A stretch of DNA of 64,000 nt from Eubacteriales bacterium (lineage in GTDB: Bacteria; Bacillota; Clostridia; Oscillospirales; CAG-272), in contig JAZQVI010000028.1 of assembly GCA_045631745.1 (NCBI GenBank), positions 1,489-65,488 on the forward strand, written 5' to 3'. A program made the position numbers and the translations under genes. How positions within the stretch are numbered: the stretch's first letter is position 1; each line of letters opens with the position of its first letter. The notes below the pieces were generated by a model. It made no database searches, was not told the DNA's origin, and saw only the letters and a program-made list of their open reading frames with translations. Of the stretch, positions 27,270 through 45,502 are shown one piece after another.

Positions 27270-28232
27270 ATGAAAATTGTTGTATTGGATCACCCGCGTG
27301 AAAACCCGGGCGAGATCGATTGGAGCAGACTGAGCGAGCTTGGAGAGGCTACGGTTCATTCCCGTACCCCCATTGACAAGCTGGCTGAAACCATCGGCGA
27401 CGCCGAGATCGTTCTGCTCAACAAGAGCCCTCTGACCCGTGAGGTCATCGAGGCTTGCCCCAACCTGCGCTTCATCTCTGTAATCGCAACCGGTTACAAC
27501 ACGGTGGACGTGCAGGCTGCAAAGGAAAGAGGCATTCCCGTTGCAAACGTTCCCTCCTACGGAACCGAGGCGATCGGTCAGCACGCAGTTGCGCTGCTGC
27601 TGGAGATCACCGACCGCGTGGGCTACCACGACGGCGAGGTTCGCAAGGGCAGACGCGAGTCTGAGGGTGACTGGTGCTTCTGGGATTACCCCTCCATCGA
27701 GCTGGAGAACAAGACGATGGGTATCGTAGGACTTGGACGCATCGGTAAGACCGTTGCCAGAGCCGGCTTGGCATTTGGCATGAAGGTCATCGCCGTTGAC
27801 GCCTTCCAGAGCGAGGAAATGATCGCTGCAGGCGTTGAGTACGTGGATCTTGACACGCTGCTCGCACAGTCTGATGTCATCTCCCTGCACTGCCCTCTCT
27901 TTGAAGAGACCAGACACATGATCAACCGCGAGGCGATCGCGAAGATGAAGGACGGAGCAATCCTCATCAACAACAGCCGTGGTGCTTTGGTTGACGAGCA
28001 GGCTCTTGCAGATGCGCTGAAGAGCGGCAAGCTCTATGCTGCAGGACTGGACGCGCTGGAGGTTGAACCCCCCAAGCCCGACTGTCCTCTGCTCACAGCT
28101 CCCAACTGCTACATCACGCCTCACATCAGCTGGGCGGCTCTGGACTGCCGCCGCCGTTTGATCAACTACTCGATTGACAACGTCGAGGCTTGGCTGAACG
28201 GTGCCCCCACCAATATCGTAAACGGTATTTGA
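27270..28232 (+). CDS. D-isomer-specific 2-hydroxyacid dehydrogenase
   Basis: NAD loop GIVGLGRIGKTVA, NNSRGALVDE, and catalytic TPHISW near the C-terminus. Start chosen at MKIVVL (27270). Confidence 0.88.
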   Translation: MKIVVLDHPRENPGEIDWSRLSELGEATVHSRTPIDKLAETIGDAEIVLLNKSPLTREVIEACPNLRFISVIATGYNTVDVQAAKERGIPVANVPSYGTEAIGQHAVALLLEITDRVGYHDGEVRKGRRESEGDWCFWDYPSIELENKTMGIVGLGRIGKTVARAGLAFGMKVIAVDAFQSEEMIAAGVEYVDLDTLLAQSDVISLHCPLFEETRHMINREAIAKMKDGAILINNSRGALVDEQALADALKSGKLYAAGLDALEVEPPKPDCPLLTAPNCYITPHISWAALDCRRRLINYSIDNVEAWLNGAPTNIVNGI

Positions 28233-28242
28233 TAAAAAACAT

Positions 28243-30255
28243 TCAGGCAGGTCGGATTTTCCGACCTGCCTTTTTTGTATTACCAAAACTGGCCCCGATG
28301 AAAATCGGGGCGGGTTTTGGTTTTATTGGTTGGTGTTTGCCTTTTCCTTCTTGTCTTCCGACAACGCCTTCTTCGTAGTAGATTCTCTGAATCTCTCCGT
28401 CAACAACGGCAAAGCCAACGCTCTCGTTTCCTGCAAAATAGCAGTTTTCTCTCGCAACACGTTCCACCAGCTTGTTATATCTGTCTTTATAAGATCCTTG
28501 GCCGGGAAGCGTGGAGCTGGACTGCATGATTTCAGTTGCCTGCGTCACGAACGCATATGTGGGTTGGATCTCCTCAAAGATCGCAAATATGTCGTAGATC
28601 AAGTGATGCGCGGGCATTATGATATCACTCTTGAGCGTTAACTCGGTGTATACTTTTCTCAATCTCGTTTGGGTCGGCTGACACGCGTCGCCCAGGATGA
28701 TCATAGACATCTGTCCGTTATCAAAACGGACCACCGTACTGGTATCGTTGGAGTCACCGCTACTGAAGCGACTTGTGGTGGAAGTCAAAAGCTCCTCATG
28801 CGTGTAAAGCACTTCAAGACTCACGTCAGCAATCTGAATCTTCTGACCTGCGTGCGCCTTGATCTCCTTGCAGTTCGGGTACTTGGTCTTGATGAGATTG
28901 CTCCAATCATCTAAAAGTTTGTACGACCAGGAGGTCACTTCTGTGGAGAAGGGATAGGAGGAGCCACCGCAATTTTCGATCGGAATATTGGCAAGCACTC
29001 GCTCCAACTCGTAGTTCTCGTTGTATTTCTTGAGGAACTCGAAGAATCCCATGACGTGGTCAGCATGATAGTGCGTCAGATACCAGCAAGAAACTCTTAC
29101 CTTTTCTCCGTCGGGAGTTCCGGTGATTTGATGCAGGAAGGCATCAAATGCTTCCATGACCTCATCACCGTACATCTGCGTGCCGCCGTCTCCTTCATAA
29201 GCACCGCCATCAATGATGATCACGCTGTTGTCAGCGCACTTGATGATACTGAGCGCTCCGCAATTAGGATGCCCGTTATTCTTACCATCGGTCATGGGAA
29301 GACCGTAGAGATAATACTCACTGCGCTCGCCAGCCGCGGGGGTGTAGGAATAACCAAACTCATCAACGGAGATGCCCTTGGGGTCAGAGATGATCTGTAC
29401 CTCACTGGCTGCAGGCTTGAAGGAAACGTGAACTCTCCGCTCTGCATTCTTGTAGGTCAGGAAGAGGTTTTCAACCGTAAGATTTTCGTATTCCTTCTCA
29501 AATCCGAAGCTCTCCAGCTTTGCAAGATACGCCTCAAACTCTTCCATGTTGGTCTTGTTGACGCGTTGGAGGCTAACGTCGGATTTGTTCCGATTTGCGG
29601 AAGAGAGATCGGTGATGGTGGTACCGCAAGGATAATAGTTCGGGACCAAGGTGTTGACCCCTGGGGAATACGCAGGAACACCGCTCAGCTTCCAATCCAC
29701 TCTGGTGAAGCCCTTGAGAATCTTCTTTTCAGCGAGCTCTGCAGACACGATCAACTTCTCTGCAGCGTCGCCCGAAAGATAATTCTCGATAAAGTATTTC
29801 ACAGCAGTCTCCAGCTGATAGTCATCCGAGCCGTTGATCACAATCTTGTTCCCAACAACCGCAACGGTATAGTAGGAATCGCTTCCCACAGTCACGCCCT
29901 CGGGAGTTGCGCTCTCGGGGCGGTTGGTGGCTCCAAGGAGCACCTCGAACACAGTTGCATCTGCTGAACTCTTGTCATCCCCCAAGAAGTTGGGGTTGAG
30001 GCCCGTCTTTGCCTTGAAGGCAGTGCGGAGCTTGTTTCGAAGCTCTGTCACAGCGGGTCCTGCCTCAGCGGGGTAAACGAATGCACACTGATACTTTCCG
30101 CCCTCGAAAATGACAAAATCGGTTTTTTCAAGGTCATTCCCATCATCCTTCTCTTCTTTGAATATGGAATCCAAGAGATTACAGGACGAGCAAGCCCCGA
30201 TCATGAGGCTCACCAGCAGGATCGCCGCGATCATTCTTAAAAGTTTTCTTTTCAT
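28243..30255 (-). CDS. MBL-domain lipoprotein, tandem paralog 1 (intact lipoprotein signal, C-terminal read-through tail)
   Basis: Signal/lipobox MKRKLLRMIAAILLVSLMIGAC. The N-domain pattern (FVYPAEAGPAVTELRNKL..FEVLLGATNRPES..YYTVAVVGNKIVINGSDDYQL..AVKYFIENYL) resembles GH-accessory/DUF4838-type N-domains. MBL motifs: IIIDGG, THYHADH (29056-29073), KAHAG, ILGDA, MPAHH. SD aaaggaa lies upstream. Confidence 0.85.
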   Translation of the reverse strand: MKRKLLRMIAAILLVSLMIGACSSCNLLDSIFKEEKDDGNDLEKTDFVIFEGGKYQCAFVYPAEAGPAVTELRNKLRTAFKAKTGLNPNFLGDDKSSADATVFEVLLGATNRPESATPEGVTVGSDSYYTVAVVGNKIVINGSDDYQLETAVKYFIENYLSGDAAEKLIVSAELAEKKILKGFTRVDWKLSGVPAYSPGVNTLVPNYYPCGTTITDLSSANRNKSDVSLQRVNKTNMEEFEAYLAKLESFGFEKEYENLTVENLFLTYKNAERRVHVSFKPAASEVQIISDPKGISVDEFGYSYTPAAGERSEYYLYGLPMTDGKNNGHPNCGALSIIKCADNSVIIIDGGAYEGDGGTQMYGDEVMEAFDAFLHQITGTPDGEKVRVSCWYLTHYHADHVMGFFEFLKKYNENYELERVLANIPIENCGGSSYPFSTEVTSWSYKLLDDWSNLIKTKYPNCKEIKAHAGQKIQIADVSLEVLYTHEELLTSTTSRFSSGDSNDTSTVVRFDNGQMSMIILGDACQPTQTRLRKVYTELTLKSDIIMPAHHLIYDIFAIFEEIQPTYAFVTQATEIMQSSSTLPGQGSYKDRYNKLVERVARENCYFAGNESVGFAVVDGEIQRIYYEEGVVGRQEGKGKHQPIKPKPAPIFIGASFGNTKKAGRKIRPA
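28246..28277. terminator. bidirectional intrinsic terminator
   Basis: Hairpin ggcaggtcgg-attttc-cgacctgcc followed by ttttttg on plus, and a T-run after a short spacer on minus. It is embedded in the last codons of the minus-strand gene 28243..30255. Confidence 0.7.
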
Positions 30256-30288
30256 AACATGATTCCTTTCTGTTCAGAGGTACTCATT

Positions 30289-32067
30289 TCAACCTTGTCC
30301 GACCTGACGTCCGACAACGCCTTCAACGTAGTAGCATTTCTGAATCTGTCCGTCAATCACTGCAAGCCCGACACTCTCGTTTCCTGCAAAGTAGCAGTGG
30401 TCCCTTGCAACGAGGTTCACCAGCTTGTCAAATCTATCTTTGTAAGATCCTTGACCCTCGAGTCTGTCGCTCAACTGCGTGCACTCATAGGACTGCGTCA
30501 CGAGTGCAAACGTGGGCCGGATCTCCTTGTAGATTGCAAATACGTCGTAGATCAAGTGATGCGCAGGCATCACGATATCGCTCTTGAGCGTTAGCTCCGT
30601 ATAGTTTCTTCTCAGTTTCGATTCGGTTCTCTGTCCTGCGTCCCCCAGAATGATCATCGACATCTGTCCGTTGTCAAAACGGATCGCCGTACTGGTATCA
30701 TTGGAATCGCCGGAGTTGAACCATCCTATGGGGCTTAAAAGATCCTCGTGCGTGTAGAGCACATCGAGCGTCACGTCAGCGATCTGAATCCTCTGACCTA
30801 CGTGCACCTTCAACTCCTTGCAGTTCGGGTATCTGGTCTTGATGAGATTGCTCCATCCGTCAAGCAGCTTGAACCCCCAGTTGGTCATTGCCAAGGAAAA
30901 AGGATAGGCGGAGCCGCCACAATTCTGGATCGGAATGTTGGCAACCACTCTCTCCAGCTCGTAGCTCTCGTTGTATCGCTTGAGGAACTCGAGAAAGCCC
31001 ATGACATGGTCCGCGTGATAGTGCGTCAGATACCAGCAGGAAACTCTTACCTTGTCTCCGTCTGCCGTTTTGGTGATCTGATGCAGGAAGGCATCAAACG
31101 CCCCCATGACCTCCTCACCGTACATCTGCGTACCGCCGTCCCCCTCGTAAGCACCGCCATCAATGACGATCACGCTATTGTCGGCGCACTTGATGACACC
31201 AAGCGTTCCGGCATTGGGGTGATTGTTGCCCTTGGCATCGCTCATGGGGAGACCGTAAAGGTAATACTCACTGCGCTCGCCTGCCGCGGGGGTGTAGGAA
31301 TAGCCAAACTCCTCCACGGAAATTCCCATCGGGTCAGAGATGACCTGCACCTCCATCGCGCGGGGCTTGAAGGAAACGTGAACTCTCTGATCTGCATTTC
31401 GGTAGGTCAGGAAGCGATTCTCGGCCGTGAGGTTTTCGTATTCCTTCTCAAATCCGAATCTCTCCAGCTTTTCAAGATAGGCCGCGAACTCCGCCTCGGT
31501 GGTCCTGTCGATCCGCTGAAGGGTAACGTCAGACTTGTTGCGGTTTGCGGTAGAGAGCCCGGTGATAGGAGTTCCGCAACTGTATGCGTTGGGAATCAGC
31601 TTGTTGCCACCCGTCGGATATGCTGGGATCCCCTCGAGTCTCCAATACTCTCTGGTAAAACCCTTGAGAATCTTCTGCTCGAAGAGGTTCTCCGGCACGG
31701 TCAGCACCTCTGTGACGTCACCCGAAAGATAGTTCTCAATGAAGGATCTCACTGCAACGCCGAGCTGATAGATGTCCGAACCGTTGATCACGATCTTGCG
31801 ACCGACCACGGCAACTGTGTAATAGGAATCGGATTCCTCTATCACCCTCTCGGGAGCTGCGCTCTCGGGGCGATTGGTCTTTCCCAGAAGCACCTCAAAG
31901 ACTTCCGCATCGGCGTCGATCTTGTCCTCCCCCAAAAAGGAAGGCATGACGCCCGTTTTCCTTCCAAAGGCGTCGCGAAGTTCATTTCTGAGTTTTGACA
32001 CCGCGGATTCTGCCAAAACGGGGTGAACGAACCCACAATGATACTTGCCGTTCTCAAAAATTACCAT
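30289..32067 (-). CDS. MBL-domain protein, tandem paralog 2 (signal peptide deleted)
   Basis: About 80% aa identity to paralog 1 by eye over the MBL domain, with THYHADH, KVHVG, ILGDA and PAHH all intact. The ORF starts at MVIFENGKY, which aligns to residue ~47 of paralogs 1 and 4. Only 35 nt separate it from the upstream stop. Confidence 0.7.
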   Translation of the reverse strand: MVIFENGKYHCGFVHPVLAESAVSKLRNELRDAFGRKTGVMPSFLGEDKIDADAEVFEVLLGKTNRPESAAPERVIEESDSYYTVAVVGRKIVINGSDIYQLGVAVRSFIENYLSGDVTEVLTVPENLFEQKILKGFTREYWRLEGIPAYPTGGNKLIPNAYSCGTPITGLSTANRNKSDVTLQRIDRTTEAEFAAYLEKLERFGFEKEYENLTAENRFLTYRNADQRVHVSFKPRAMEVQVISDPMGISVEEFGYSYTPAAGERSEYYLYGLPMSDAKGNNHPNAGTLGVIKCADNSVIVIDGGAYEGDGGTQMYGEEVMGAFDAFLHQITKTADGDKVRVSCWYLTHYHADHVMGFLEFLKRYNESYELERVVANIPIQNCGGSAYPFSLAMTNWGFKLLDGWSNLIKTRYPNCKELKVHVGQRIQIADVTLDVLYTHEDLLSPIGWFNSGDSNDTSTAIRFDNGQMSMIILGDAGQRTESKLRRNYTELTLKSDIVMPAHHLIYDVFAIYKEIRPTFALVTQSYECTQLSDRLEGQGSYKDRFDKLVNLVARDHCYFAGNESVGLAVIDGQIQKCYYVEGVVGRQVGQG

Positions 32068-32102
32068 GTCAGATCCCTTCTCTTCTTTGTTTTTGTTATA
32101 TT

Positions 32103-34037
32103 TCAGCCTTGTCCGACCTGCCGTCCGACAACGCCTTCAACGTGGTAGCATTCCTGAATCTTCCCGTCGATCACTGCAAGACCGACGGTCTCGTTTCCTG
32201 CAAAGTAGCAGTTGTCGCCGACAAAGGAAACCAACTTGTCAAATCTCTCTTTATAAGAGCCTTGCCCCTCAATTCTTGAATTTGCCTGCGAGCACTCATA
32301 GGACTGCGACACAAGTGCAAACGTGGGGCGGATCTCCTTGTAGATTTCAAACACGTCGTAGACCAGGTGATGCGCCGGCATCACGACATCGCTCTTGAGG
32401 GTTGCCTCGGTAAAGATCCTTCTGAGTCTCGATTCGGTTCTCTGCCCGCCGTCCCCCAAGACCATCATAGACATCTGACCGTTGTCCACACGGATCACCG
32501 TGCTGGTATCATTGGAGTCAGCGCTGTTGAAGTAGCCTATGGGAGTCAAAAGATCCTCGTGCGTGTAGAGCACCTCAAGGCTCACGTCAGCGATTCGGAT
32601 CTTCTGACCTGCGTGCACCTTGATCTCCTTGCAGTTGGGGTATCTGGTCTTGAGGAGTTCACTCCACGCCTCGATCATATTGTACACCCAGTTGGTCATT
32701 TCCAAGGAGAACTGATTGGTAATTCCGCCACAGTCCTGAATCGGAATGTTGGCAATAATTCTCTCCAGCTCGTAGTTTTCATTGTATTTCTTGAAGAACT
32801 CAAGAAGTCCTCTGGTATGGTCGCTGTGATAGTGCGTGACATACCAGCCCGAAACTCTTACCTTCTCTCCTTCGGCAGTTCCGGTGATCTGATGCAAGAA
32901 GGCGTCAAACGCCCCCATGACCTCCTCACCGTACATCTGCGTGCCGCCGTTCCCCTCGTACTCGCCGCCGTCAATGATAATCACACTGTTGTCGGCACAC
33001 TTGATCAGCGCGAGCGTTCCGCAGTTGGGGTGACCATTTGCCTTGCAATCGGTCATGGGAATGCCGTAAAGGTAATATTCACTGCGCTCACCTGCCGCAG
33101 GGGTGTAGGAATAGCCAAACGCCTCAATAGCCATTCCCTTCGGGTCAGAGATGACCTGTGCCTCGCCAATGGCGGGCTTGAAGGATACGTGAACTCTCAT
33201 TCCATCCTTTTTGTAGGTCAGGAAGAGGTTCTCCGACGTAAGATTTTCGTATTCCTTCTCAAATCCAAAACGCTCCAGCTTCGTAAGATACGCCGCGAAC
33301 TCCGCCTCGGTGCTTCGGTCGATGCGCTGAAGGCTGACATCGGATTTGTTCCGTTTTTTGACAATGCGATTGGAAATGGTGCTGCCGCACTCATATTCAT
33401 TCGGCACCAGCTTGTTGCTCCCCACAGGATATGCGGGAACGCCGCCAAGTCTCCAGTACTCCCTGGTAAAATCCTTGAGGATCTTCTGCTCACATAGGTC
33501 TGCAGGCACCGTCAGCTCTTCCACAACATCGCCCGAAAGGTAGTTCTCAATGAAGGATCTCGCAGCAACGCCAAGCTGATAGTTGTCGGAGCCGTTGATC
33601 ACGATCTTATTTCCGATCACGGCAACCGTGTAATAGGAATCGGTTTCCTCAACCACGCCTGCCGGTGTCGCGCTCTCGAGGCGGTTGGTCTTGCCAAGCA
33701 ACACCTCAAGCACCTCCGCGTTTGCACAACTCTTATCTTCTCCCAAAAAGGAAGGAATGACACCCGTTTTTTTCTCAAAAGCACTGCGAAGCTCATTTCG
33801 GATCAGCGATACCGCGCCTTCTACCAAAACGGGGTAAACAAACTTAAAATTATACTTGCCGTTTTCGAAAATTACAATATCAGTTTTCATGTTTTTTCCG
33901 TTCTTCTTGTCCTTTCCGCGTATAGAATCTACAAGAAAACAAGGCGGGGAGGCTCCGATCATGGAGCTTCCCCGCCGGACTGCCGCTATAATTCTTAAAA
34001 CGTTTTTTGCAGCACAACACCTACGACAATCGATCAT
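32103..34037 (-). CDS. MBL-domain protein, tandem paralog 3 (decayed signal peptide and start region)
   Basis: Body is intact (THYHSDH, KVHAG, VLGDG, PAHH). The N-terminus is ..IIAAVRRGSSMIGASPPC.. where paralogs 1 and 4 have a hydrophobic core plus GAC lipobox. The ancestral ATG and SD are mutated and there is no SD before 34037. An alternative internal ATG exists at 33890 (MKTDIVIFENG). Confidence 0.62.
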   Translation of the reverse strand: MIDCRRCCAAKNVLRIIAAVRRGSSMIGASPPCFLVDSIRGKDKKNGKNMKTDIVIFENGKYNFKFVYPVLVEGAVSLIRNELRSAFEKKTGVIPSFLGEDKSCANAEVLEVLLGKTNRLESATPAGVVEETDSYYTVAVIGNKIVINGSDNYQLGVAARSFIENYLSGDVVEELTVPADLCEQKILKDFTREYWRLGGVPAYPVGSNKLVPNEYECGSTISNRIVKKRNKSDVSLQRIDRSTEAEFAAYLTKLERFGFEKEYENLTSENLFLTYKKDGMRVHVSFKPAIGEAQVISDPKGMAIEAFGYSYTPAAGERSEYYLYGIPMTDCKANGHPNCGTLALIKCADNSVIIIDGGEYEGNGGTQMYGEEVMGAFDAFLHQITGTAEGEKVRVSGWYVTHYHSDHTRGLLEFFKKYNENYELERIIANIPIQDCGGITNQFSLEMTNWVYNMIEAWSELLKTRYPNCKEIKVHAGQKIRIADVSLEVLYTHEDLLTPIGYFNSADSNDTSTVIRVDNGQMSMMVLGDGGQRTESRLRRIFTEATLKSDVVMPAHHLVYDVFEIYKEIRPTFALVSQSYECSQANSRIEGQGSYKERFDKLVSFVGDNCYFAGNETVGLAVIDGKIQECYHVEGVVGRQVGQG

Positions 34038-34063
34038 GTTTCAGGATCGTTGTTTTGTAAGCG

Positions 34064-35971
34064 TCATCCGTTTTGTCTGTACTCTCTTTGGATGTCGTGG
34101 CGGATTACCTGAATCTGTCCGTCAACCACAGCGAGACCTACCGTCTCATTTCCTGCAAAGTAGCAGTTGGCCTCATCAACAAAGGAGATCAACTTGTTGT
34201 ATCTCTCGATATAAGATCCTTCTTCACCGACCTTGGACTTGGACTGCGAGCACTCATAGGACTGAGGCACAAGCGCAATCGTGGGCTGGATTGCATCATA
34301 AACCTTGAACACGTTGTTGATCAAGTGATGCGCTGGCTGAACGATGTCACTCTTGAGAGACAACTCGGTATAGATTTTTCGCAATTTCGCTTCGGTTGTA
34401 CGACCGGCGTCACCCAAGCTGAACATGGACATCTGTCCGTTATCAAAACGGGTTACGATACTGGTATCGTTGGAGTCGTTGCTGCTGAAGCGATTTATGG
34501 AATTAAGGAGATCCTCGTGCGTGAAAAGAATATCCAGGCTTACGTCAGCGATCTGAATCTTCTGACCGGAGTGCACCTTCAACTCCTTGCAGCTGGGGAA
34601 CTTGGTCTTAATAAGATTGCTCCATCCATCAAGAATTCTGTACGACCAGCCGGTCATTTCAGCGGAAAAGGAAGTAGACGAACCGCCACAATTCTCAATC
34701 GGAATATTTGCAATCACTCTTTCAAGCTCATAGTTCTCACAATAGCGCTTGAAGAACTCAAGAAGTCCTCTGGTGTGGTCGCTGTGATAGTGCGAGAGAT
34801 ACCAAGCAGAAACTCTTACCTTATCTCCGCTTGCGGTTCCGGTGATCTGATGCAGGAACGCATCAAAATCTCCCATTACCTTATCACCGTACATCTGCGT
34901 GCCGCCCTCACCCTCGTACTCACCGCCATCGATGATAATGACGCTGTTGTCAGCGCACTTGATGACAGAGAGCGTTCCGCAGTTGGGGGCATTGTTGCCG
35001 TTGCAATCGGTCATGGGAAGACCGTAGAGATAATACTCGCTGCGCTCTCCCGCCTTAGGAGTATAGGAATAACCAAACGCTTCAACAGAGGTACCATTCG
35101 GGTCGGAAATAACCTGAACCTCCGAGATCGCAGGCTTGAAGGAGACATGAACTCTCTGATCCTCGGATGTGTAGGTCAAAAAGAGATTCTCAGCCGTGAG
35201 ATTTTCGTATTCCTTCTGAAATCCGAAGCTCTCCAGCTTTGCAAGATACGCCTCGAACTCTGCCATGGTGGTCTTTTCAATACGCTGAAGCGTAACATCA
35301 GACTTATTGCGGTTTGCGTCAGAGAGATTCGTAATGGTGGTACCGCTGTTATAGGCATTTGCAATCAGAGTGTTGACACCTGCCGCGTATGCGGGAATAC
35401 CATTCAGCTTCCAGGACGCTCTGGTGAAGTCCTTGAGGATCTTCTGCTCGGAAAGATCCGCGGATACTGCCAGCTTCTCTGCAACGTCGCCCGACAAATA
35501 CGTCTCAATGAAGTACTCGACCGCAACGCCCAGCTGATAGCTGTCGGATCCGTTAATCACGATCTTGTTTCCAACAACGGCAACGGTATAGTAGGAATCG
35601 CTTCCCTCCGTCACGCCCTGGGGAGCCATGCTCTCGGGGCGGTTGGTGTTTCCCAAAAGCAGCTCAAACACTTCCGCGTTTGCGTCGCTCTTTCCATCAT
35701 CCTTGAAGGAGGGATTGATCCCCGTCTTCGCCTTAAAGGCGGTGCGAAGCTCATTTCTGAGCTCCGCCACCGAGGAATCAGCCGAAGCGGGGTAAACAAA
35801 CTCACAATTATACTTGCCGTTTTCGAAAATCACCATGTCGGAAACAACACTGCCGGGATCGCCCTGGTCCTCTTTGAAGATCGAATCGAGGAGACCACAG
35901 GACGAGCAAGCGCCCATCATGCACCCCATCAACAGAACTGTCGCTATGACTCTTAAAAAGGTTCTCTTCAT
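34064..35971 (-). CDS. MBL-domain lipoprotein, tandem paralog 4 (intact lipoprotein signal)
   Basis: MKRTFLRVIATVLLMGCMMGAC lipobox and SD aaaggaa. SHYHSDH, KVHSG, SLGDA and PAHH are present. The C-terminus diverges (..QVIRHDIQREYRQNG). Confidence 0.85.
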   Translation of the reverse strand: MKRTFLRVIATVLLMGCMMGACSSCGLLDSIFKEDQGDPGSVVSDMVIFENGKYNCEFVYPASADSSVAELRNELRTAFKAKTGINPSFKDDGKSDANAEVFELLLGNTNRPESMAPQGVTEGSDSYYTVAVVGNKIVINGSDSYQLGVAVEYFIETYLSGDVAEKLAVSADLSEQKILKDFTRASWKLNGIPAYAAGVNTLIANAYNSGTTITNLSDANRNKSDVTLQRIEKTTMAEFEAYLAKLESFGFQKEYENLTAENLFLTYTSEDQRVHVSFKPAISEVQVISDPNGTSVEAFGYSYTPKAGERSEYYLYGLPMTDCNGNNAPNCGTLSVIKCADNSVIIIDGGEYEGEGGTQMYGDKVMGDFDAFLHQITGTASGDKVRVSAWYLSHYHSDHTRGLLEFFKRYCENYELERVIANIPIENCGGSSTSFSAEMTGWSYRILDGWSNLIKTKFPSCKELKVHSGQKIQIADVSLDILFTHEDLLNSINRFSSNDSNDTSIVTRFDNGQMSMFSLGDAGRTTEAKLRKIYTELSLKSDIVQPAHHLINNVFKVYDAIQPTIALVPQSYECSQSKSKVGEEGSYIERYNKLISFVDEANCYFAGNETVGLAVVDGQIQVIRHDIQREYRQNG

Positions 35972-37863: not shown

Positions 37864-40800
37864 TCACGCCAAGGGCTCGAGCGCACGATTGATCACACCG
37901 TTCTTGAAGGATACCGTCACCGCCTCTCCGCAAATGCGAAGTCCAAGCTTGCCGATCATCTTGAAGCTCTTGACCTCAAAATCGATCTGACCGATGTTGG
38001 TTGGAACGCCATCCAAAACTGCGCCGAAGATGTAGAATGCGCCAAGATCGGTTGCCAAGCAGTTGGTCATGGTTCCGTTTTCGGTTGCATTGATCGAGTC
38101 ATAAACGGTCGTTCCGCTCAAGCGGTAGAACATCTCAACGATCTTGCCGTCCGCATCCTTGTATCGCGCCGTAATCTCAAATCCTACACCGACACAGCTC
38201 GTATTGTAAACACCGCCGATAAAGCGGATGCTTTGCGTGCCGTCCTTCGCCTCGCTATACTGGATATCCACCACGTCGGAGCTATTCAGCGCCTTCTCGT
38301 AAAGCACGAAGGTCATGGGCTCGGTGATCACCAGAGCGGGATCGCCTTCCCAGGGAGGAAGCACAACCATTCCGGTTGCCTTATCCAGCCAAAGGGCATC
38401 CATTTTGGCACCTGCCTCGGGGAAGCTTTGGATCGAAACGCTGCCGTCTTCGCCAAGGAGCTCCTTTCTCAAAAGGCCGCCATTTTCATTTTCGAAGGTT
38501 ACGTACTGGAGCTGAGGCATCACGTCGGTATTCGATACCACACCCTCGTAGATGGAGATATCCTTAACATCCAGGATCTCGGTTCCATTGGCAGGCTTAG
38601 CCAACGTGCCGTAACTGGAAAATCCAACACAGAATGCAAGGGTCTTGGTGTCAAAATCAGAAAGTTTAACCCCCGCATTGGTGTTTTTCACGTTCTCGAG
38701 GTTCCAGGACATTGGCACCACCTCGTCACCGACCTTCAGGGAAATGACTCCCTTGTTGATGATCAGAACGTAACGAACGTATCCGTCCTCGTCGCATCCG
38801 TTCTTCCAAGGGTTACCCATCTTAAGACCGGTTCCGAACTCGCTGCTGCCGTCCGTTCTCATATAAATGTCCATGCCTGTGTAGAAGTTCTTGACGCCTC
38901 CGTCCATGTGGACTCGAACACCCGCAGTCTTGTTCGGGCTCTTAAGGTCATTGGTAAATCCTGCGTACATACCGGTATTACCGTTCATCTTGACATAATA
39001 CTCAACGGTATAAACGCTGTCGGTGGTCAAGGGCAGGTCGGTCAGGACACCGTAGCCGCCCCAGCCTTTGCTCGCGCCATTCTTGTCGACAACGTATGTA
39101 CTCAAGTTACTCTTGGTCACTCCGTAGGAATAGTTCTGCGTCGCATTCACGCCCTCGCGCTGATACGTGACGGCATCCTTATCCAAGCCCGAAAGCTGGA
39201 GCAAGAGAGGCCCGTTCTTGTCGAACGTCTGGCGCACAGTCAGCGCCGCGGACTCGGTAAAGGTCGTGGGAACCTGAATCTCCTCGCCGGTCGCCTTGTT
39301 GCGCCAACCCTGAAGGTTGACCATGCCAAGATCCGGGAAAGCAGTCAGCGTATAGCCGCTCTTGGGGATCTCATAGGTCGCCATCACCTTGCCTGAGCCA
39401 TTCTCAAAGGTCAGGAACTCCTGGTGCACAACCAGGATTGTCGTCTCGGTAAAGGTTGTGGATGCCAAAACATCCTCGCCGGTTCCCTTGTTGGTCCAAC
39501 CCCAAACGTTGGTAAAACCAAGATCCGGGAAGGTACCAAACGTCAGACCGTCGTCCTTGGGAATCTCATAAGTCTCCAAGACCTTGCCTTCTGCGTCCTC
39601 AAAAATCACGAACTCTTGGTGCGCAACCAGTGTCGTGGACTCGGTAAAGGTCACAGGAGTCTGAACCTTCTTGCCGGTCTCCTTGTCAGACCAATCCCAT
39701 ACATTGATCAAACCAACGTCGTGGAAGGTCTCCAGCGGCAAGCCGTCCACGGAGGGAATCTCATAGGTTGCCATGACCTTGCCGGTGCCATCCTCGTATG
39801 TCAAGAACTCCTGGTGTGCAACCAGCGTCGTTGACTCGGTAAAGGTCAAGGGGAACTCAACCTTCTCGCCGGTCTCCTTGTTATACCAGTGCCATACGTT
39901 GGTAATATCAAGCTCGGGGATCTCTTCAAGCGTCAGACCGCCCTCGAGAATCTCACGGTAGCCCAGTTCCTTGCCCGCTTCGTCCTCAAAGATCACGTAT
40001 TCTCTATATGTAGGAACTTCGGGAACCTCGGGCGCCTCATCGGGGTTGATAACGCCGGAATAGATGGAGATGTTCTTAACCTCAACAACCACATCGTCCT
40101 TTACAGGCTTGGTATAGCTGCTGCCTGCTCCCTTTTCACAATAACCCATCTGGAGGCAAAGCGTTTTTACAGTCCAATCATTTACCTTCGGGAACTGCTT
40201 GAGACCCGATCCGTTGGTATCCAGGTTCTCCGAACCTCGTGTAAGGTCATATCTTACACCGATATCCACGCCGTCAATGGAAAGCCCCATATACCGACCA
40301 TCAAAGGTCAGAACAAACCGAACAAATCCGTCCTCATCAGCCCTATCCGTCCAAACGTTGCCGTCCAACGCAACAGGTTCTCCGTTGTTCACTCCCTCTT
40401 TGTAATATCCGTTTACAAACCACTTGCTCTTCGTGCTAACCTTATTTCCAGCAGCATAAACGAGCACATCGGGGCCGTAATTGGGATAATTCAGGTTCTG
40501 GCAGAATCCCGCATAAAAGCTCATGGCATTGTTGGGATTCATCTTTGCGTAAAACTCGATGGTATAAGCCGTATCGCAGCCAAGTGGAAGGCCGGTGTTA
40601 AGCCCAATACCACCCAACACATCGCTGGAGCTACACACGATTTGCGTCGTGTCTTCGCCGCCCAACTTCACCTTGTTTCCGGAAGTTTGCGCCAGTATGG
40701 TTCCGTAAGGATTGTAGGTAACCGAATCCTTTGACAAGGAATCCATCTGCAAGAGCAGCGTCCCGTCATTGTATGGCGGAGGCACCGCAAACACCGACAT

Positions 40801-40887
40801 CGGAAGCGCCGTTGTCAGAATCAGCACGGCAAGAACAACCGCAATTAGCTTTGAAAGGGATGTTCGCTTCAAAAGGTTCTTCTTCAT
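37864..40887 (-). CDS. large secreted multidomain protein: two lectin/LamG-like jelly-roll modules, 4+1 Listeria/Bacteroides-type repeats, unknown C-terminal domain
   Basis: Type I signal MKKNLLKRTSLSKLIAVVLAVLILTTALPMSVFA. Two homologous ~240-aa modules (DGTLLLQMDSLSKDSVTY..YTIEFYAKMN..DEDGFVRFVLTFDG..VEVKNISIYSG versus NGPLLLQLSGLDKDAVTY..YTVEYYVKMN..DEDGYVRYVLIINK..LDVKDISIYEG). Four tandem 64-65-aa repeats (F.xFEDxxGKV..YEIP....L..FPDLG..NVWGW..K.TGE.V..P.TFTESTTLVAHQE). SD aaaggagga; start set to the ATG at 40887. Confidence 0.85.
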   Translation of the reverse strand: MKKNLLKRTSLSKLIAVVLAVLILTTALPMSVFAVPPPYNDGTLLLQMDSLSKDSVTYNPYGTILAQTSGNKVKLGGEDTTQIVCSSSDVLGGIGLNTGLPLGCDTAYTIEFYAKMNPNNAMSFYAGFCQNLNYPNYGPDVLVYAAGNKVSTKSKWFVNGYYKEGVNNGEPVALDGNVWTDRADEDGFVRFVLTFDGRYMGLSIDGVDIGVRYDLTRGSENLDTNGSGLKQFPKVNDWTVKTLCLQMGYCEKGAGSSYTKPVKDDVVVEVKNISIYSGVINPDEAPEVPEVPTYREYVIFEDEAGKELGYREILEGGLTLEEIPELDITNVWHWYNKETGEKVEFPLTFTESTTLVAHQEFLTYEDGTGKVMATYEIPSVDGLPLETFHDVGLINVWDWSDKETGKKVQTPVTFTESTTLVAHQEFVIFEDAEGKVLETYEIPKDDGLTFGTFPDLGFTNVWGWTNKGTGEDVLASTTFTETTILVVHQEFLTFENGSGKVMATYEIPKSGYTLTAFPDLGMVNLQGWRNKATGEEIQVPTTFTESAALTVRQTFDKNGPLLLQLSGLDKDAVTYQREGVNATQNYSYGVTKSNLSTYVVDKNGASKGWGGYGVLTDLPLTTDSVYTVEYYVKMNGNTGMYAGFTNDLKSPNKTAGVRVHMDGGVKNFYTGMDIYMRTDGSSEFGTGLKMGNPWKNGCDEDGYVRYVLIINKGVISLKVGDEVVPMSWNLENVKNTNAGVKLSDFDTKTLAFCVGFSSYGTLAKPANGTEILDVKDISIYEGVVSNTDVMPQLQYVTFENENGGLLRKELLGEDGSVSIQSFPEAGAKMDALWLDKATGMVVLPPWEGDPALVITEPMTFVLYEKALNSSDVVDIQYSEAKDGTQSIRFIGGVYNTSCVGVGFEITARYKDADGKIVEMFYRLSGTTVYDSINATENGTMTNCLATDLGAFYIFGAVLDGVPTNIGQIDFEVKSFKMIGKLGLRICGEAVTVSFKNGVINRALEPLA
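39226..39999 (-). repeat. four tandem ~195-bp coding repeats (Listeria/Bacteroides Flg_new-like modules) inside the large secreted protein gene
   Basis: Protein residues 309-566 of the track ORF divide into units of 64, 65, 65 and 64 aa, each ending in TFTES..L.V.Q. Confidence 0.8.
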
Positions 40888-40982
40888 TCTGTTTCCTCCT
40901 TTGTTGAAACTGCACAATTTCAATCCGTCGCGATATGCAAAAAGACGATACTTCGACGAAAGAAAAGTTGGTGTACGAGGCT

Positions 40983-42607: not shown

Positions 42608-43538
42608 ACGTTCCCTCCTGTGAAAGTTTTTTTACAAACGTGTTTCCGGAATCCACGATCCGCATCGCATGATCCAGAATTTCTTTCGCCGACGCTTCCT
42701 TCTTGGCACGGTCTGCGTCACTGAAATTTTGCCTTCTGTGGCAAATTTCCTCATAGAACGGAGAACACTTGGCATACTGCCAAAAATACTCGCCGTACAT
42801 CACGTCATCATACTGCCAGGGCTTTTTGTAGAGCGCGTAATGCAGGATCCTCTCCCGCCCCTCGCATGGCAAGGGCATCGGCTCCTTGTTCCAACCGTTC
42901 GGAAGGACATGGATTCTGCCCGCGCACAGATAATTCAGATATGCCTGATCGGGATCAAGTAGGTCAAAATCATGCTCGGTAATAAGCCGAATGAATTGAT
43001 CCTCGATCCCCGCCCTTCTGTATTCCGCGAGGTTCATCAAAAGCACACCTGCATTCACATATGTATCGGGGTCAACGCCAAGCGCCTTTTCAGCGTACAG
43101 TCTGAATTCCCTCGTATTCTGCACGAACGCCTCAGGTGCCGCACCCAAAATGTGATTTCCCAGTTCGGTTTGATACAGCTCGGAGATATCCCCAAGCACC
43201 ACGAGATCACAGTCCAGATACACCGCCTTATCGTACTGTGGAAAGAGCGATGCGATAAACATTCTGTAATAGGTAACAATGGAAAAATGGTACACGTCCT
43301 TGAGGCGCGATTTGATCGACGCGAGTTGCTCGGAAATATTCACAAACTCAATCCGCACGCCCGATCGCTCGTTCTGCTTCACCGTCTCTGCACTTTTCTC
43401 GGAAACGCCCGTGTTCATAACAATGATCCTGTAGTCGTAATCCCTTGATGCATTCTCGATTAAAGAACGCAGTGCCACGTCAAGATAGGGGATGTAGTTG
43501 TCGTCGGTGGAAAAGAAAATCGGGATCTCCTTTTTCAT
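42588..43538 (-). CDS. glycosyltransferase family 8
   Basis: IFFSTDDNY.PYL.V.. and YLDCDLVV (DxD), with NAGVLLMNL. The start was set to the ATG at 43538, behind SD aaaaggag. It overlaps the downstream gene by 20 nt. Confidence 0.84.
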   Translation of the reverse strand: MKKEIPIFFSTDDNYIPYLDVALRSLIENASRDYDYRIIVMNTGVSEKSAETVKQNERSGVRIEFVNISEQLASIKSRLKDVYHFSIVTYYRMFIASLFPQYDKAVYLDCDLVVLGDISELYQTELGNHILGAAPEAFVQNTREFRLYAEKALGVDPDTYVNAGVLLMNLAEYRRAGIEDQFIRLITEHDFDLLDPDQAYLNYLCAGRIHVLPNGWNKEPMPLPCEGRERILHYALYKKPWQYDDVMYGEYFWQYAKCSPFYEEICHRRQNFSDADRAKKEASAKEILDHAMRIVDSGNTFVKKLSQEGTYGAIIA

Positions 43539-43575
43539 ACGTATTACTCCTTTTTGGTTCTGTCCTTTGAGCTCC

Positions 43576-43604
43576 ATTATATGTTTGAGATCAAGGAAAG
43601 TCAA
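43576..43604 (-). promoter_or_regulatory. sigma-A promoter for the GT8 operon
   Basis: Minus strand TTGACT (43604-43599), 17 nt spacer, TATAAT (43581-43576). Confidence 0.6.
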
Positions 43605-43689
43605 CCGACCGCTTGGAGAGAGGGGTCTACACCTTTTAATCGCATCGGTAGAGTGACCTCTCCACTGCTCTACCGACAGTAGAATCAAT

Positions 43690-43730
43690 AAAAAACGCCC
43701 CGTTTCTTGCAAAACGGGACGTTTTTTTTG
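43690..43730. terminator. bidirectional intrinsic terminator after the XRE regulator gene
   Basis: Hairpin acgccccgttt..aaacgggacgt flanked by an A-run and a T-run. Confidence 0.65.
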
Positions 43731-43734
43731 CTTT

Positions 43735-44337
43735 TTATTGGTTTTTCGGTTTGTTGATAAACGACCACAGTACGATCACGATCTGACCTGCAACCCCCAG
43801 CAAATAGATGAGAGCAACATTGACACCGCAGTACAAAAAAGTGATCTGAATCGCCGACAGCACCGACCACATCAAAAGGGATATAATCAGATAATTATGC
43901 CTGGGATTAAACCAGATCGAATTGAAAACCAGCCGCACGATCAACACAACTGGCAAGGCGTAAATAAAGTACAGCCATTGAAAAGACATCTTACCAAGGA
44001 TCAGTGTGGTGATGATAAAGGCGATGATGGCAACAATCCAGCCTACGCTTTCCGAGACGTAGGAGATGGCACGTCGGTTGTATTTTCCCCCCTGCGTCTT
44101 GGGCTCGGATACAGTCTGCTCGATACGCTCTGCTCTCACCAGATCATCCAGCGTCACGCCGAACAGATCCGCAAGTTCAATCAGCACCGAGATGTCGGGC
44201 GCAGATTCCCCCCTCTCCCATTTGGAGATCGCCTTGTCCGAATAATTCAGTTTTTCAGCAAGCTCGAGCTGCGTCATATTGTTTTTCAGACGAAGTTCGG
44301 TGATATTCCTGGCAAGATTGCCTCTTACGTCTTTCAT
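43735..44337 (-). CDS. XRE-family HTH regulator with C-terminal multi-pass membrane domain
   Basis: HTH LRLKNNMTQLELAEKLNYSDKAISKWERGESAPD, followed by ~4 hydrophobic helices. The start was set to the ATG at 44337, behind SD aggag. Confidence 0.82.
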   Translation of the reverse strand: MKDVRGNLARNITELRLKNNMTQLELAEKLNYSDKAISKWERGESAPDISVLIELADLFGVTLDDLVRAERIEQTVSEPKTQGGKYNRRAISYVSESVGWIVAIIAFIITTLILGKMSFQWLYFIYALPVVLIVRLVFNSIWFNPRHNYLIISLLMWSVLSAIQITFLYCGVNVALIYLLGVAGQIVIVLWSFINKPKNQ

Positions 44338-44388
44338 GGTATGTTCTCCTGTCGCATAGGATATCCTCTGCAAATTGCTTTGTGTAAC

Positions 44389-44417
44389 AGTATATCATAA
44401 ATCGATTAAAATGTCAA
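44389..44417 (-). promoter_or_regulatory. sigma-A promoter for the XRE regulator gene
   Basis: Minus strand TTGACA (44417-44412), 17 nt spacer, TATACT (44394-44389). Confidence 0.6.
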
Positions 44418-44461
44418 CACATGCTTTGGAATATGCCAAAACGCTACGGGTTGCAGAGCCC

Positions 44462-44780
44462 CATCGGAGAGTCTGAACTCAAACGCGCGGTGACGTGCGA
44501 TGCGGCACGTTCGTTTGGTGCTGTCGCGCGTTCTTGGCAAATTGCAAGCAATTTGCGGAGCTCTGACTCACATAAGTGAGCGACAAAAAAGAGCAGGCAT
44601 TGCGTTGCGATGCCTCTCATCGGAGAGTCTGAACTCAAACGCGCGGCAAAATACGGTGCGCCGCCCTCGTTTGGCTCGTCCGCGCGTTCTTGGCAAATTG
44701 CAAGCAATTTGCGGAGCTCTGACTCACATAAGTGAGCGACAAAAAAGAGCAGGCATCGCGTTGCGATGCCTGTTCTTTTT
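44462..44780 (-). repeat. tandem repeat (two units; copy-to-copy offset 156 bp; unit 1 44462-44617 = 156 bp, unit 2 44618-44780 = 163 bp) downstream of tRNA-Lys; each unit = terminator hairpin + conserved segment + divergent 34-nt core + pseudo tRNA-Lys 3' end
   Basis: The units are identical except for one base in the hairpin loop and the 34-nt cores (44491-44524 versus 44647-44680, ~60% identity). The cores are bracketed by the inverted repeat aacgcgcg/cgcgcgtt. Each unit ends (minus strand) in gagttcAgactctccgatg, versus gagttcgactctccgatg in the tRNA. Confidence 0.85.
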
Positions 44781-44856
44781 TGGTGACCCATCGGAGAGTC
44801 GAACTCCGGACACCATGATTAAAAGTCATGTGCTCTGCCATCTGAGCTAATGGGTC
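44781..44856 (-). tRNA. tRNA-Lys (anticodon UUU), CCA encoded
   Basis: Minus strand GACCCAT-TA-GCTC-AGATGGCA-GAGC-A-CATGA-CTTTTAA-TCATG-GTGTC-CGGAG-TTCGACT-CTCCG-ATGGGTC-A-CCA folds as a canonical 76-nt cloverleaf. Confidence 0.93.
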
Positions 44857-44874
44857 TTTTTTGGCTACCTAAAA

Positions 44875-44903
44875 ATTATACCATAAACCCGTCAGTTTGT
44901 CAA
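44875..44903 (-). promoter_or_regulatory. consensus sigma-A promoter for tRNA-Lys
   Basis: Minus strand TTGACA (44903-44898), 17 nt spacer, TATAAT (44880-44875). Confidence 0.65.
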
Positions 44904-44965
44904 GATTTATAAAAAAGATTAAACATACAAATTCAGTCTGTGTTTGAAAGCCGTTTTTGTGCAAA

Positions 44966-45502
44966 TTACACCTGTTTTTGCTTGATCTTTACCAACTCAT
45001 GTCTGGTGTAGCTTGCCATCATAGAAATGTTCTCGGGCAGCACAGACGGAAGCGTGGGGGTATATTCTCCATCGCTGATCTCGCTCTCGCGAATCTGCGT
45101 TCTCACCCATCTGAGAAACATTTTTTCAGCAACGCTTGCGCGCTCCAGCTTGAGCAGTCCGCCAAAGTTAAGCGCGGCAAAGGCACTGTCGAGGAGTAAC
45201 TTATCAAAGATATTTTGAACGTATCGCTCAAATTCATGTCCAAATCCGCAGCACAAAAAGAGTGCATGAGGCATCTCGCATAGCGCTGCCCCGTGCTCCT
45301 GCAGATAGGTGCGCAAGCTTTGTCTTGCCCGTCCGAATCTGACCGACGATCCAAGGATCACCACGTCATATTCACAGGGGCTGGGGCGCTGAATATCCAG
45401 ATCCGCCACGGTCACGTCCTGCCCCTTGAGCTCCTCGCAGAGCATCTCGGCGCACGCTTTTGCCGTTCCTGTTTTGGACGCATACCCAATCAGGATCCTC
45501 AT
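44966..45502 (-). CDS. flavodoxin-domain protein (HemG/long-chain flavodoxin-like)
   Basis: N-terminal ILIGYASKTGTA (FMN phosphate loop) and YDVVILGSS. Confidence 0.75.
   Translation of the reverse strand: MRILIGYASKTGTAKACAEMLCEELKGQDVTVADLDIQRPSPCEYDVVILGSSVRFGRARQSLRTYLQEHGAALCEMPHALFLCCGFGHEFERYVQNIFDKLLLDSAFAALNFGGLLKLERASVAEKMFLRWVRTQIRESEISDGEYTPTLPSVLPENISMMASYTRHELVKIKQKQV

Follow-up and report, generated by a model that had tools for sequence, protein, structure and literature searches.

Tandem units behind a tRNA-Lys gene of a CAG-272 bacterium are copies of a genus-wide family of structured, gene-less modules inserted behind tRNA genes

The tRNA-linked repeats (TLRs) of Escherichia coli, including RtT (rttR) behind tyrT-tyrV, were reportedly treated by Egan and Landy in 1978 and by Rudd in 1999; the RtT RNA is presumably the Rfam family RF00391. 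We read the tyrV-rttR locus of K-12: the 178-nt unit ends in AATCCTTCCCCCACCACCA, a 19-nt copy of the tRNA that starts at the T-loop position A58, and the reverse complement of nt 59-68 occurs in the unit as well, as GGGGAAGGAT. In the fold of rttR, GGGGAAGGAT pairs with the terminal copy ATCCTTCCCC and forms a closing helix around a branched interior. E. coli has 22 such repeats spread over ten loci, and every copy has at its end 18-19 nt identical to the tRNA or rRNA upstream of it; their transcription is by read-through, with subsequent processing, and most are without known function (Stenum et al. 2021, PMC8144298). A search of the literature for a described counterpart of the modules presented here returned the E. 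coli TLR papers only, and the TLR (RtT) is the closest published thing, with a ground plan common to both.

Folded single strands also serve as recombination sites: the attC sites of integrons and the attP(+) hairpin of CTX phage are of this kind, and are recombined by IntI or by the host XerCD. The P4-type tyrosine integrases, in turn, place islands and CIMEs in tRNA genes at the T-loop sublocation.

We studied a stretch of 64,000 nucleotides (the window; positions 1,489 to 65,488 of contig JAZQVI010000028.1) from the assembly GCA_045631745.1 of a Eubacteriales bacterium (CAG-272), a MAG with a completeness of 83%. Two head-to-tail units are located on the minus strand, 3' of the gene for tRNA-Lys(UUU) (Table 1). 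Tandem Repeats Finder placed them at 44462-44771 with a period of 156 and 2.0 copies, confirming the tandem 156-nt units reported in a preliminary description of this DNA. An ungapped comparison of unit 1 (44618-44773) and unit 2 (44462-44617) showed 17 mismatches, 15 of them within the 35 positions of the core and only two, at the unit junction and in the terminator, within the 121 positions of the flanks. Outside the cores the units had been described as identical apart from one base, and the near-identity holds with a second differing base; the cores had been given as 34 nt long and about 60% identical, and here the divergence stands (57% identity ungapped, 63% with gaps) and the length is corrected to 35 nt. 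All the other parts described before were present in both units: the terminator CAGGCATCGCAACGCGATGCCTG followed by a T-run (with one stem mismatch in the copy of unit 2), the palindrome GCAAATTGC-TT-GCAATTTGC, the brackets AACGCGCG and CGCGCGTT on either side of the core, and a T-arm copy with one inserted base at the 3' end of the unit, which reads GAGTTC-A-GACTCTCCGATG as compared with GAGTTCGACTCTCCGATG in the tRNA itself. In unit 1 the perfect part of this copy spans 12 nt (nt 57-68), and in unit 2 it covers about nt 57-70; in both, nt 51-56 and the extra base come before it.

The promoter of tRNA-Lys was the only one found upstream of the array, and no internal promoter was found in the window's units; an intrinsic terminator separates that promoter from the modules. 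The ORFs running over the repeat (44444-44791 in the minus strand and 44500-44850 in the plus strand) gave no Pfam match above cut-off, and the region is open on both strands, which supports the earlier view of them as artefacts. The neighbouring gene encodes an XRE-type HTH protein whose C-terminal half is hydrophobic, and the ATG at 44337 is its likely start.

Table 1 Features of the tRNA-Lys locus and of the two module units in the window
Feature	Position	Strand	Remarks
Promoter of tRNA-Lys	44875..44903	-	TTGACA, 17 nt, TATAAT, with TG; 12/12 consensus matches
tRNA-Lys(UUU), target gene, intact	44781..44856	-	100% identical in most genomes of the genus
Module unit 1, tRNA-proximal	44618..44780	-	A-run, terminator, spacer, three-way junction, pseudo T-arm; model R1 102.6 bits
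Unit 1 intrinsic terminator	44741..44772	-	Now acts as the tRNA's terminator
Unit 1 antisense arm GTGAGTCAGAGCTC, 5' strand of P1	44714..44727	-	Pairs with pseudo T-arm
Unit 1 hairpin P2, GCAAATTGC-TT-GCAATTTGC	44693..44712	-	
Unit 1 stem P3, AACGCGCG / CGCGCGTT	44638..44688	-	Closes variable core 1 (44646-44680)
Unit 1 pseudo T-arm GAGTTC-A-GACTCTCCGATG	44618..44636	-	tRNA nt 51-56, extra A, nt 57-68
Module unit 2, distal	44462..44617	-	Same parts as unit 1; R1 103.6 bits
Unit 2 terminator	44585..44615	-	
Unit 2 antisense arm	44558..44571	-	
Unit 2 P2	44537..44556	-	
Unit 2 P3	44482..44532	-	
Unit 2 core 2	44490..44524	-	
Unit 2 pseudo T-arm	44462..44480	-	
Neighbouring gene, outside the module	43735..44417	-	Own promoter 44389-44417; syntenic in sister strain L068

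The two units of the window belong to family A, a genus-wide family of gene-less, structured modules of roughly 125-160 bp located 3' of tRNA and tmRNA genes. When the window's own assembly was searched, a locus of the same plan, with 70% identity, came to light behind tRNA-Glu. We then inspected the 3' flanks of all 35 tRNA genes and found a module behind Ser(GGA), Lys, Met, His, Val(CAC), Glu and Ser(GCU); the tmRNA gene also has one behind it. The copy number and tRNA association that the preliminary description had proposed to check thus amount to 15 copies of family A at eight loci, i.e., seven tRNA genes and the tmRNA gene, and because the same architecture recurs at eight loci of this genome the array pattern is far beyond chance. 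Other module families of a similar general plan stand behind tRNA-Leu, Tyr, Thr and Pro in the same genome.

A covariance model (R1) built from 18 module copies found the 15 copies of the window's genome; it had matches in 34 of the 41 genomes of the genus and, in an order-level search of 250 genomes, in 4 outside the genus. Scanning one genome per GTDB species for the exact motif yielded 21 MAGs of uncultured gut Clostridia, Eubacteriales and Oscillospiraceae from deer and other faecal samples, and a pattern scan of metagenomes yielded two contigs. Two further matches of the motif scan, in Pyrinomonadaceae and Pirellulales, lay inside coding DNA and were discarded as chance. Among 61 distinct module copies, 60 were co-oriented with the tRNA; the tRNAs served were Lys, Glu, Val, Ala, Ser, Arg, Pro, His and Met. 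In arrays whose tRNA was on the fetched DNA, the first unit started 31-51 nt behind it, and the remaining copies were in tandem or on fragments without a tRNA. Modules stand behind the last tRNA of a cluster, and the tRNA-Lys locus keeps a Lys module in many species.

Comparison of sister species showed identical tRNA-Lys genes with and without a module. At the empty sites (L077, L082 and L084) the CCA was directly followed by a hairpin terminator, aacgtaacaaatccgaac...gttcggatttgtttttt. At the filled site L093, a family-A insert of 145 bp, with ...CGCGCGTTTGAGTTC-T at its end, came after the CCA; GACTCTCCGATGGGTCACCA was next, and the old terminator stood behind it. In the filled sites GACTCTCCGATGGGTCACCA is the displaced copy of nt 57-76, and the terminator behind it was identical to that of the empty sites at 66/70 (L093) and 61/70 positions. 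The other filled site, L092, had a 148-bp module of a second family, once more with a perfect copy from nt 57 and with an antisense arm matched to nt 57-72. In the sister species family A carries the full 20-nt copy, nt 57-76. The copies of the tRNA 3' end are indeed insertion junctions, the inserted thing is the 145-160-bp unit itself, and the boundary of the insertion is shown to be C56|G57. The preliminary description had considered stacked att-site scars: its insertion junctions stand, as seen from the empty and filled sites, but scars of larger elements do not, given that the unit itself is inserted, has a conserved fold and comes with no integrase. Note that one module copy, in L071, was inverted.

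Turnover was also seen among strains, on contigs retrieved through close homologues of the window's flavodoxin protein. Contigs with identical flavodoxin protein, promoter and tRNA-Lys had three different terminators right after the CCA; two of these led into different modules, and the third contig ended before that point. Since the tRNA-proximal sequence differs among contigs that are identical upstream, the tRNA-proximal position is a hot spot. Most of the flavodoxin/tRNA-Lys contigs broke within the tRNA or within the module. The module was not seen in any excised or circular form. Some genomes of the genus have integrase-bearing islands at tRNA-Lys (e.g., G001:C79, with an integrase gene and a partial tRNA copy), and larger inserts occur between or beside modules.

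RNAalifold and our own pair counts resolved the unit as a three-way junction with helices P1, P2 and P3. P1 is formed by the antisense arm (GTGAGTCAGAGCTC in the window) and the pseudo T-arm, and P2 by the palindrome; in P3 (AACGCGCG / CGCGCGTT), 99% of the cells were paired and five of the eight pairs had both-sided changes. The sense arm corresponds to nt 51-56 of the local tRNA, i.e., GAGTTC, GGGTTC, AGGTTC, AAGTTC or CAGTTC depending on the tRNA, and P1 covaries with the local T-arm, the GAGTTC, GGGTTC and AGGTTC variants each being matched. One extra base comes after the sense arm, and behind the module a perfect copy of the tRNA then runs from nt 57 to nt 68 (12 nt) or to nt 76 (20 nt). 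In the window's genome the extra base was A, and other species had A, T, C or TT there; it lies unpaired in P1 exactly between the T-loop positions 56 and 57, and we read it as a bulge or a 1x1 mismatch. Mispairs within the helices were G-T in 63 cases versus A-C in 26, a suggestive excess of about 2 to 1 that mildly favours folding of the tRNA-sense strand. The z-scores of the fold were modest (-2.3 and -2.5). Each module brings its own terminator. The RNA covariation analysis that the preliminary description had called for was thus positive, in P3 as in P1, and its option of a structured RNA family with a variable loop holds as to the family and, by the compensatory changes, as to the fold. 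An Rfam match, which it had named as a possible reason for reclassification, was not obtained: in a cmscan of 43500-45500 against all families, with E up to 10, tRNA was the sole family to approach its gathering score, and RtT gave no match.

The contrast between nearly identical flanks and divergent cores had been judged hard to explain by duplication and drift, and rightly so, since a syntenic contig of the sister strain L068 is the opposite case to the window, its two units having identical cores but different terminators and spacers. The tRNA-His array of the window's genome resembles the L068 pattern. The motifs AAACGA and CCGCAT are shared by the cores; core 2 is 77% identical to the L068 core, the best match of core 1 is in a Val module of another species (71%), and the median identity over all pairs of cores is 51%. 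The cores, being homologous to those of other modules, are not spacer-like; a CRISPR-like array of unrelated spacers was rejected on this homology (63-77% identity) and on the shared motifs. A diversity-generating retroelement was likewise rejected, as the 15 core differences involve all four bases and so are not adenine-specific, and the window's genome had no RVT_1 match. With neither spacer acquisition nor targeted hypermutation retained as the source, the contrast is a recombination mosaic, probably made by patchy gene conversion or by segment replacement among units. A tree of the module interiors, in which some nodes were well supported, grouped them by genome or clade across tRNA types; this clustering fits either movement between tRNAs or concerted evolution.

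Five enzyme families were searched for in the 41 genomes of the genus (tyrosine integrase, serine recombinase, IS200/IS605 RAYT Y1, IS110 and reverse transcriptase), and none of them tracked module number; these genomes are incomplete MAGs, in which the absence of a gene is weak evidence. The tyrosine recombinases (PF00589) of the window's genome were one full, housekeeping Xer-like gene, placed between the gene of an MBL hydrolase and gltX, and one fragment. Xer recombinases are known for action at dif sites and not at T-arms. No Y1 HUH transposase (PF01797), IS110 transposase, serine recombinase or reverse transcriptase was found in this 83% complete MAG, nor an integron integrase, its sole recombinase scoring 87.8 bits against the TIGR02249 cut-off of 265. 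Across the genus, PF01797 had matches in 10 of 41 genomes, unrelated to module count, and the IS110 DEDD transposase (PF01548) in five of 41 above cut-off and in nine at E up to 0.001. Several module-rich genomes had a single tyrosine recombinase, and the genome with most recombinases, G016, is module-free. REP/RAYT elements and miniature derivatives of IS200/IS605 were rejected for want of PF01797 in the window's genome, and an IS110/IS1111 bridge-RNA element for want of a PF01548 transposase there. IS91-type targeting of GTTC was set aside because a tetranucleotide target cannot explain the restriction to tRNA genes, and tRNA-primed reverse transcription because the order of parts does not fit.

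The likeness to the E. coli TLRs extends to several features. In both cases, units of about 100-180 nt stand directly behind a tRNA or rRNA gene, co-oriented with it and in one to five tandem copies; they end in a copy of the 3' part of the upstream gene that starts in the T-loop (at A58 in E. coli, at G57 in Clostridia), although in the window this copy stops at nt 68 or about nt 70, while in E. coli it comprises the last 18-19 nt; and, as rttR shows, an antisense arm and the terminal copy close a branched fold on the same plan as P1. The Clostridia modules show no similarity to the TLRs in sequence, and they differ in the fold of the interior (P2, and P3 with its variable core), in having nt 51-56 followed by an additional unpaired base at 56/57, and in usually having their own terminator, whereas the tyrT repeats that were read have none between tRNA and repeat. 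The host phylum differs as well, and empty and filled sites together with strain-level turnover are documented in Clostridia.

With attC sites and the CTX attP(+) hairpin the modules share an imperfect inverted repeat, one strand of which can fold so as to imitate the duplex of the target, bases left unpaired or extrahelical at the crossover (in the modules, the proposed one), a variable middle, and, in our reading, the addition of new units at a fixed proximal site, which gives arrays; attC in particular is, like the module, an imperfect palindrome folding on one strand with unpaired bases and a variable middle. As in CTX, no integrase encoded by the element would be needed, and the order of parts in the integrated module would be that of a one-strand exchange product. 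Unlike these systems, the target is a tRNA T-loop rather than attI or dif, the modules carry no gene, and in place of the attC consensus RYYYAAC / GTTRRRY the module sites read CCAAGAAC and GTTTGAG. The islands and CIMEs of tRNA genes resemble the modules in that a direct repeat of the tRNA 3' part, from the T-loop on, bounds the insert, the tRNA stays intact, and tandem accretion takes place at one tRNA. They differ in that the module has only about 150 bp and a conserved single-strand fold with an antisense arm, and that an integrase is found neither in the unit nor in most genomes, PF00589 counts not following module counts in these MAGs.

Of the three options in the preliminary description (att scars, a structured RNA family, a recombination cassette) we favour the last. 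In our reading, to which we give a probability of roughly 0.55, the unit is an insertion module that folds by itself and has the T-loop of the tRNA as its target, in a manner like that of attC or CTX, with arrays that afterwards become mosaic by gene conversion. The module would enter through a break or exchange in the T-loop, where a folded single strand, probably of DNA, would mimic the duplex of the T-arm of the tRNA gene; a single-strand exchange would follow, to be completed by replication, and the enzyme for it would be encoded elsewhere, outside the module. The predicted product reads, in order: tRNA nt 1-56; nt 57-76, terminator and spacer; antisense arm; core; nt 51-56 and the unpaired base; nt 57 onward of the host; and the old terminator. 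We propose a one-strand exchange because the order of parts is that expected as the product of an exchange between the duplex tRNA gene and a folded strand. In the free form, ...CGCGCGTTTGAGTTC-N should accordingly be linked to GACTCTCC...CCA, followed by the terminator that the module itself carries. Arrays would grow by repeated entry beside the tRNA, or by unequal crossing-over between T-arm copies, and patchy gene conversion between units would lead to mosaics such as the identical flanks with divergent cores.

Such an exchange would account for the antisense arm, the unpaired base at the crossover, the absent integrase and the growth of arrays at the proximal end. It also implies that a chimeric tRNA would arise if an element with its own nt 57-76 entered a different tRNA. 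Several points speak against it: no enzyme that reads a T-arm was found; the fold would suit an RNA equally; the copies in the window end at nt 68 and about nt 70, i.e., the old 3' end is not intact and later deletions must be assumed; and concerted evolution could give the genome-wise clustering of interiors without movement between tRNAs. A wider version of this reading, in which tRNA-linked repeats at large, the E. coli TLRs and the Clostridia modules included, form a general class of nucleic-acid-guided insertion modules, each unit folding a strand into a copy of the T-arm duplex, its crossover base unpaired, which a housekeeping enzyme (e.g., the single Xer-like recombinase) would then splice into the T-loop, is put forward tentatively, and we consider it unlikely.

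The modules may instead be functional non-coding RNAs of the RtT kind, three-way junctions excised with the tRNA-like 3' copy as a processing signal, whose gain, loss and mosaics come from homologous recombination anchored in the invariant tRNA gene. The conserved fold with its compensatory changes and with G-U pairs on the tRNA-sense strand would agree with this, as would the co-orientation of 60/61 modules and their position behind the last tRNA of a cluster, the permanence of the Lys module at one locus in many species, and the precedent of E. coli, where repeats of the same plan are transcribed by read-through and processed (PMC8144298) and the antisense arm of the rttR unit folds on the terminal tRNA copy. 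However, the window's array lies behind an intrinsic terminator that separates it from its sole promoter, with no internal promoter found, and a terminator hairpin opens every first unit that was read at other loci. Moreover, close relatives do without the module at tRNA-Lys and have no substitute there, the proximal unit varies among strains that are identical upstream, and Rfam, RtT included, gave no match. We regard an RNA function of this sort as possible and rather doubtful.

An origin of the units as classical att remnants, i.e., as cis-mobilisable deletion derivatives of integrase-bearing islands or prophages at the T-loop sublocation, stacked and then degraded, appears improbable. The direct repeat from the T-loop to the tRNA 3' end is what P4-type sites have, each unit has its own terminator, and larger inserts between or beside modules as well as the integrase islands at tRNA-Lys of some genomes (G001:C79) would be in keeping with it; yet no parent element with these ends was found, the window's genome combines 15 modules with just the Xer-like recombinase, and several module-rich genomes also make do with one tyrosine recombinase. 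Scars would not retain a three-way junction with compensatory changes or an antisense arm matched to the tRNA, and the extra base lies inside the would-be crossover region. A simple local event of no wider significance, in which the tRNA trailer was duplicated in tandem and then drifted, would leave two head-to-tail copies with near-identical flanks, as are present here, but it is refuted by the copy census, which counts a module behind eight genes here and modules in 34 of the genus's 41 genomes. Differences at 2/121 flank versus 15/35 core positions are also impossible by uniform drift, and we give this origin hardly any credence.

The modules are a variant of the tRNA-linked-repeat kind, for which the comparative evidence of insertion and rapid turnover is good and a self-folding insertion mechanism is our inference. 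In practical terms, their arrays break short-read assemblies at tRNA genes and create spurious ORFs, and they supply stacked copies of tRNA 3' ends beside which genes and islands are found. Repeats linked to tRNA genes have been known since 1978 with their origin unexplained, and this genus is a much richer case: up to 15 copies per small genome, the diagnostic unpaired base at 56/57, empty and filled alleles, and differences between strains, a combination that makes the mechanism directly testable. If true, an integron-like or CTX-like pathway to tRNA genes would answer the question of the origin of TLRs that has stood since then.

Two family-A modules, the folded, gene-less units that follow tRNA and tmRNA genes, were found 3' of the tmRNA gene of the same genome (G000), and their pseudo T-arm, GGGTTC-A-GATTCCCATCAT, is a copy of the tmRNA T-arm. 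Further module families in this genome, linked to Leu, Tyr, Thr and Pro tRNA genes (see table), share one plan: an antisense arm, a folded core and a sense copy of the 3' end. The Leu units carry an additional A ahead of GTTC and form tandem arrays of up to three; those behind Thr lack the extra base and measure 116 nt; and in the Pro unit a hairpin insert splits the pseudo T-arm at G57|A58.

The E. coli tRNA-linked repeat (TLR) shows the arrangement described for the Pro unit. In the K-12 locus examined, the TLR linked to tyrV (rttR) holds GGGGAAGGAT, the reverse complement of nt 59-68 of tRNA-Tyr, which in the fold pairs with the terminal 19-nt tRNA copy. A degenerate T-arm, AAGGTTCGACTC, is also present upstream of the interior hairpins.

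Location of the features described (G, genome; C, contig, of G000 unless stated; L, locus)
Feature	Location	Strand	Remark
tmRNA gene	G000:C30:28607-28998	minus	own genome, outside window
Two family-A modules	G000:C30, stretch 28150-28998		3' of tmRNA gene
Other-family modules, tRNA-Leu	C20, C37, C47, C58		own genome
Other-family modules, Tyr	C5		own genome
Other-family modules, Thr-CGU	C54		own genome
Other-family modules, Pro-CGG	C26		own genome
rttR locus	L131, NC_000913.3 1285900-1287300		E. coli K-12
Contig-end examples	C36, C20, C26; L119-L127; G030:C79; G025:C171		
Hybrid module behind tRNA-Glu	L059, 1387-1680		genome G262, another family of the order
Cassette between tRNA-Ser(GGA) modules	G000:C4, stretch 1-2400		1.7 kb
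Large serine recombinase genes	G064:C38, G022:C2, G029:C11, G021:C106		same genus
Four tandem paralogous genes	window 28243-35971	minus	repeat families D1-D8
Gene for 1019-aa protein	window 37864-40923	minus	
Thr_leader match	window 43642-43736		
GCAATTTGC in XRE-HTH gene leader	window 44370-44378	minus	

In G000 and its sister MAGs, many short-read contigs break off within a tRNA gene or a module, the T-arm being a frequent end point; these assemblies are systematically broken by the module arrays.

Within the window, the leader of the XRE-HTH gene beside the array contains one more copy of the 9-mer GCAATTTGC, which forms one half of the palindrome in module hairpin P2. The window has five copies of this 9-mer in all, against 0.87 expected by chance. 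The recurrence may be fortuitous or may reflect a common operator half-site. A weak match to Rfam Thr_leader (31.8 bits, below the gathering score of 55) is just a hairpin and T-run in the short gap immediately 3' of the XRE gene. The window also holds four tandem paralogues (592-670 aa each, 70-90% DNA identity) and the 1019-aa protein, which has four internal repeats of ~65 aa.

Four genomes of the genus have genes for large serine recombinases ~1.1 kb 3' of tRNA-Lys, and these may use the conserved hairpin terminator behind this tRNA (acaaatccgaac...gttcggatttgt) as attachment site. In L081, other sequence replaces the loop of this hairpin. Between two tRNA-Ser(GGA) modules, the loop of the terminator hairpin holds a cassette that has its own promoter and codes for an XRE-HTH protein bearing a helical-repeat domain.

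The module behind tRNA-Glu in G262 combines an antisense arm of Glu type with a distal copy and following terminator of tRNA-Lys type, which suggests that modules at different loci have recombined with each other.
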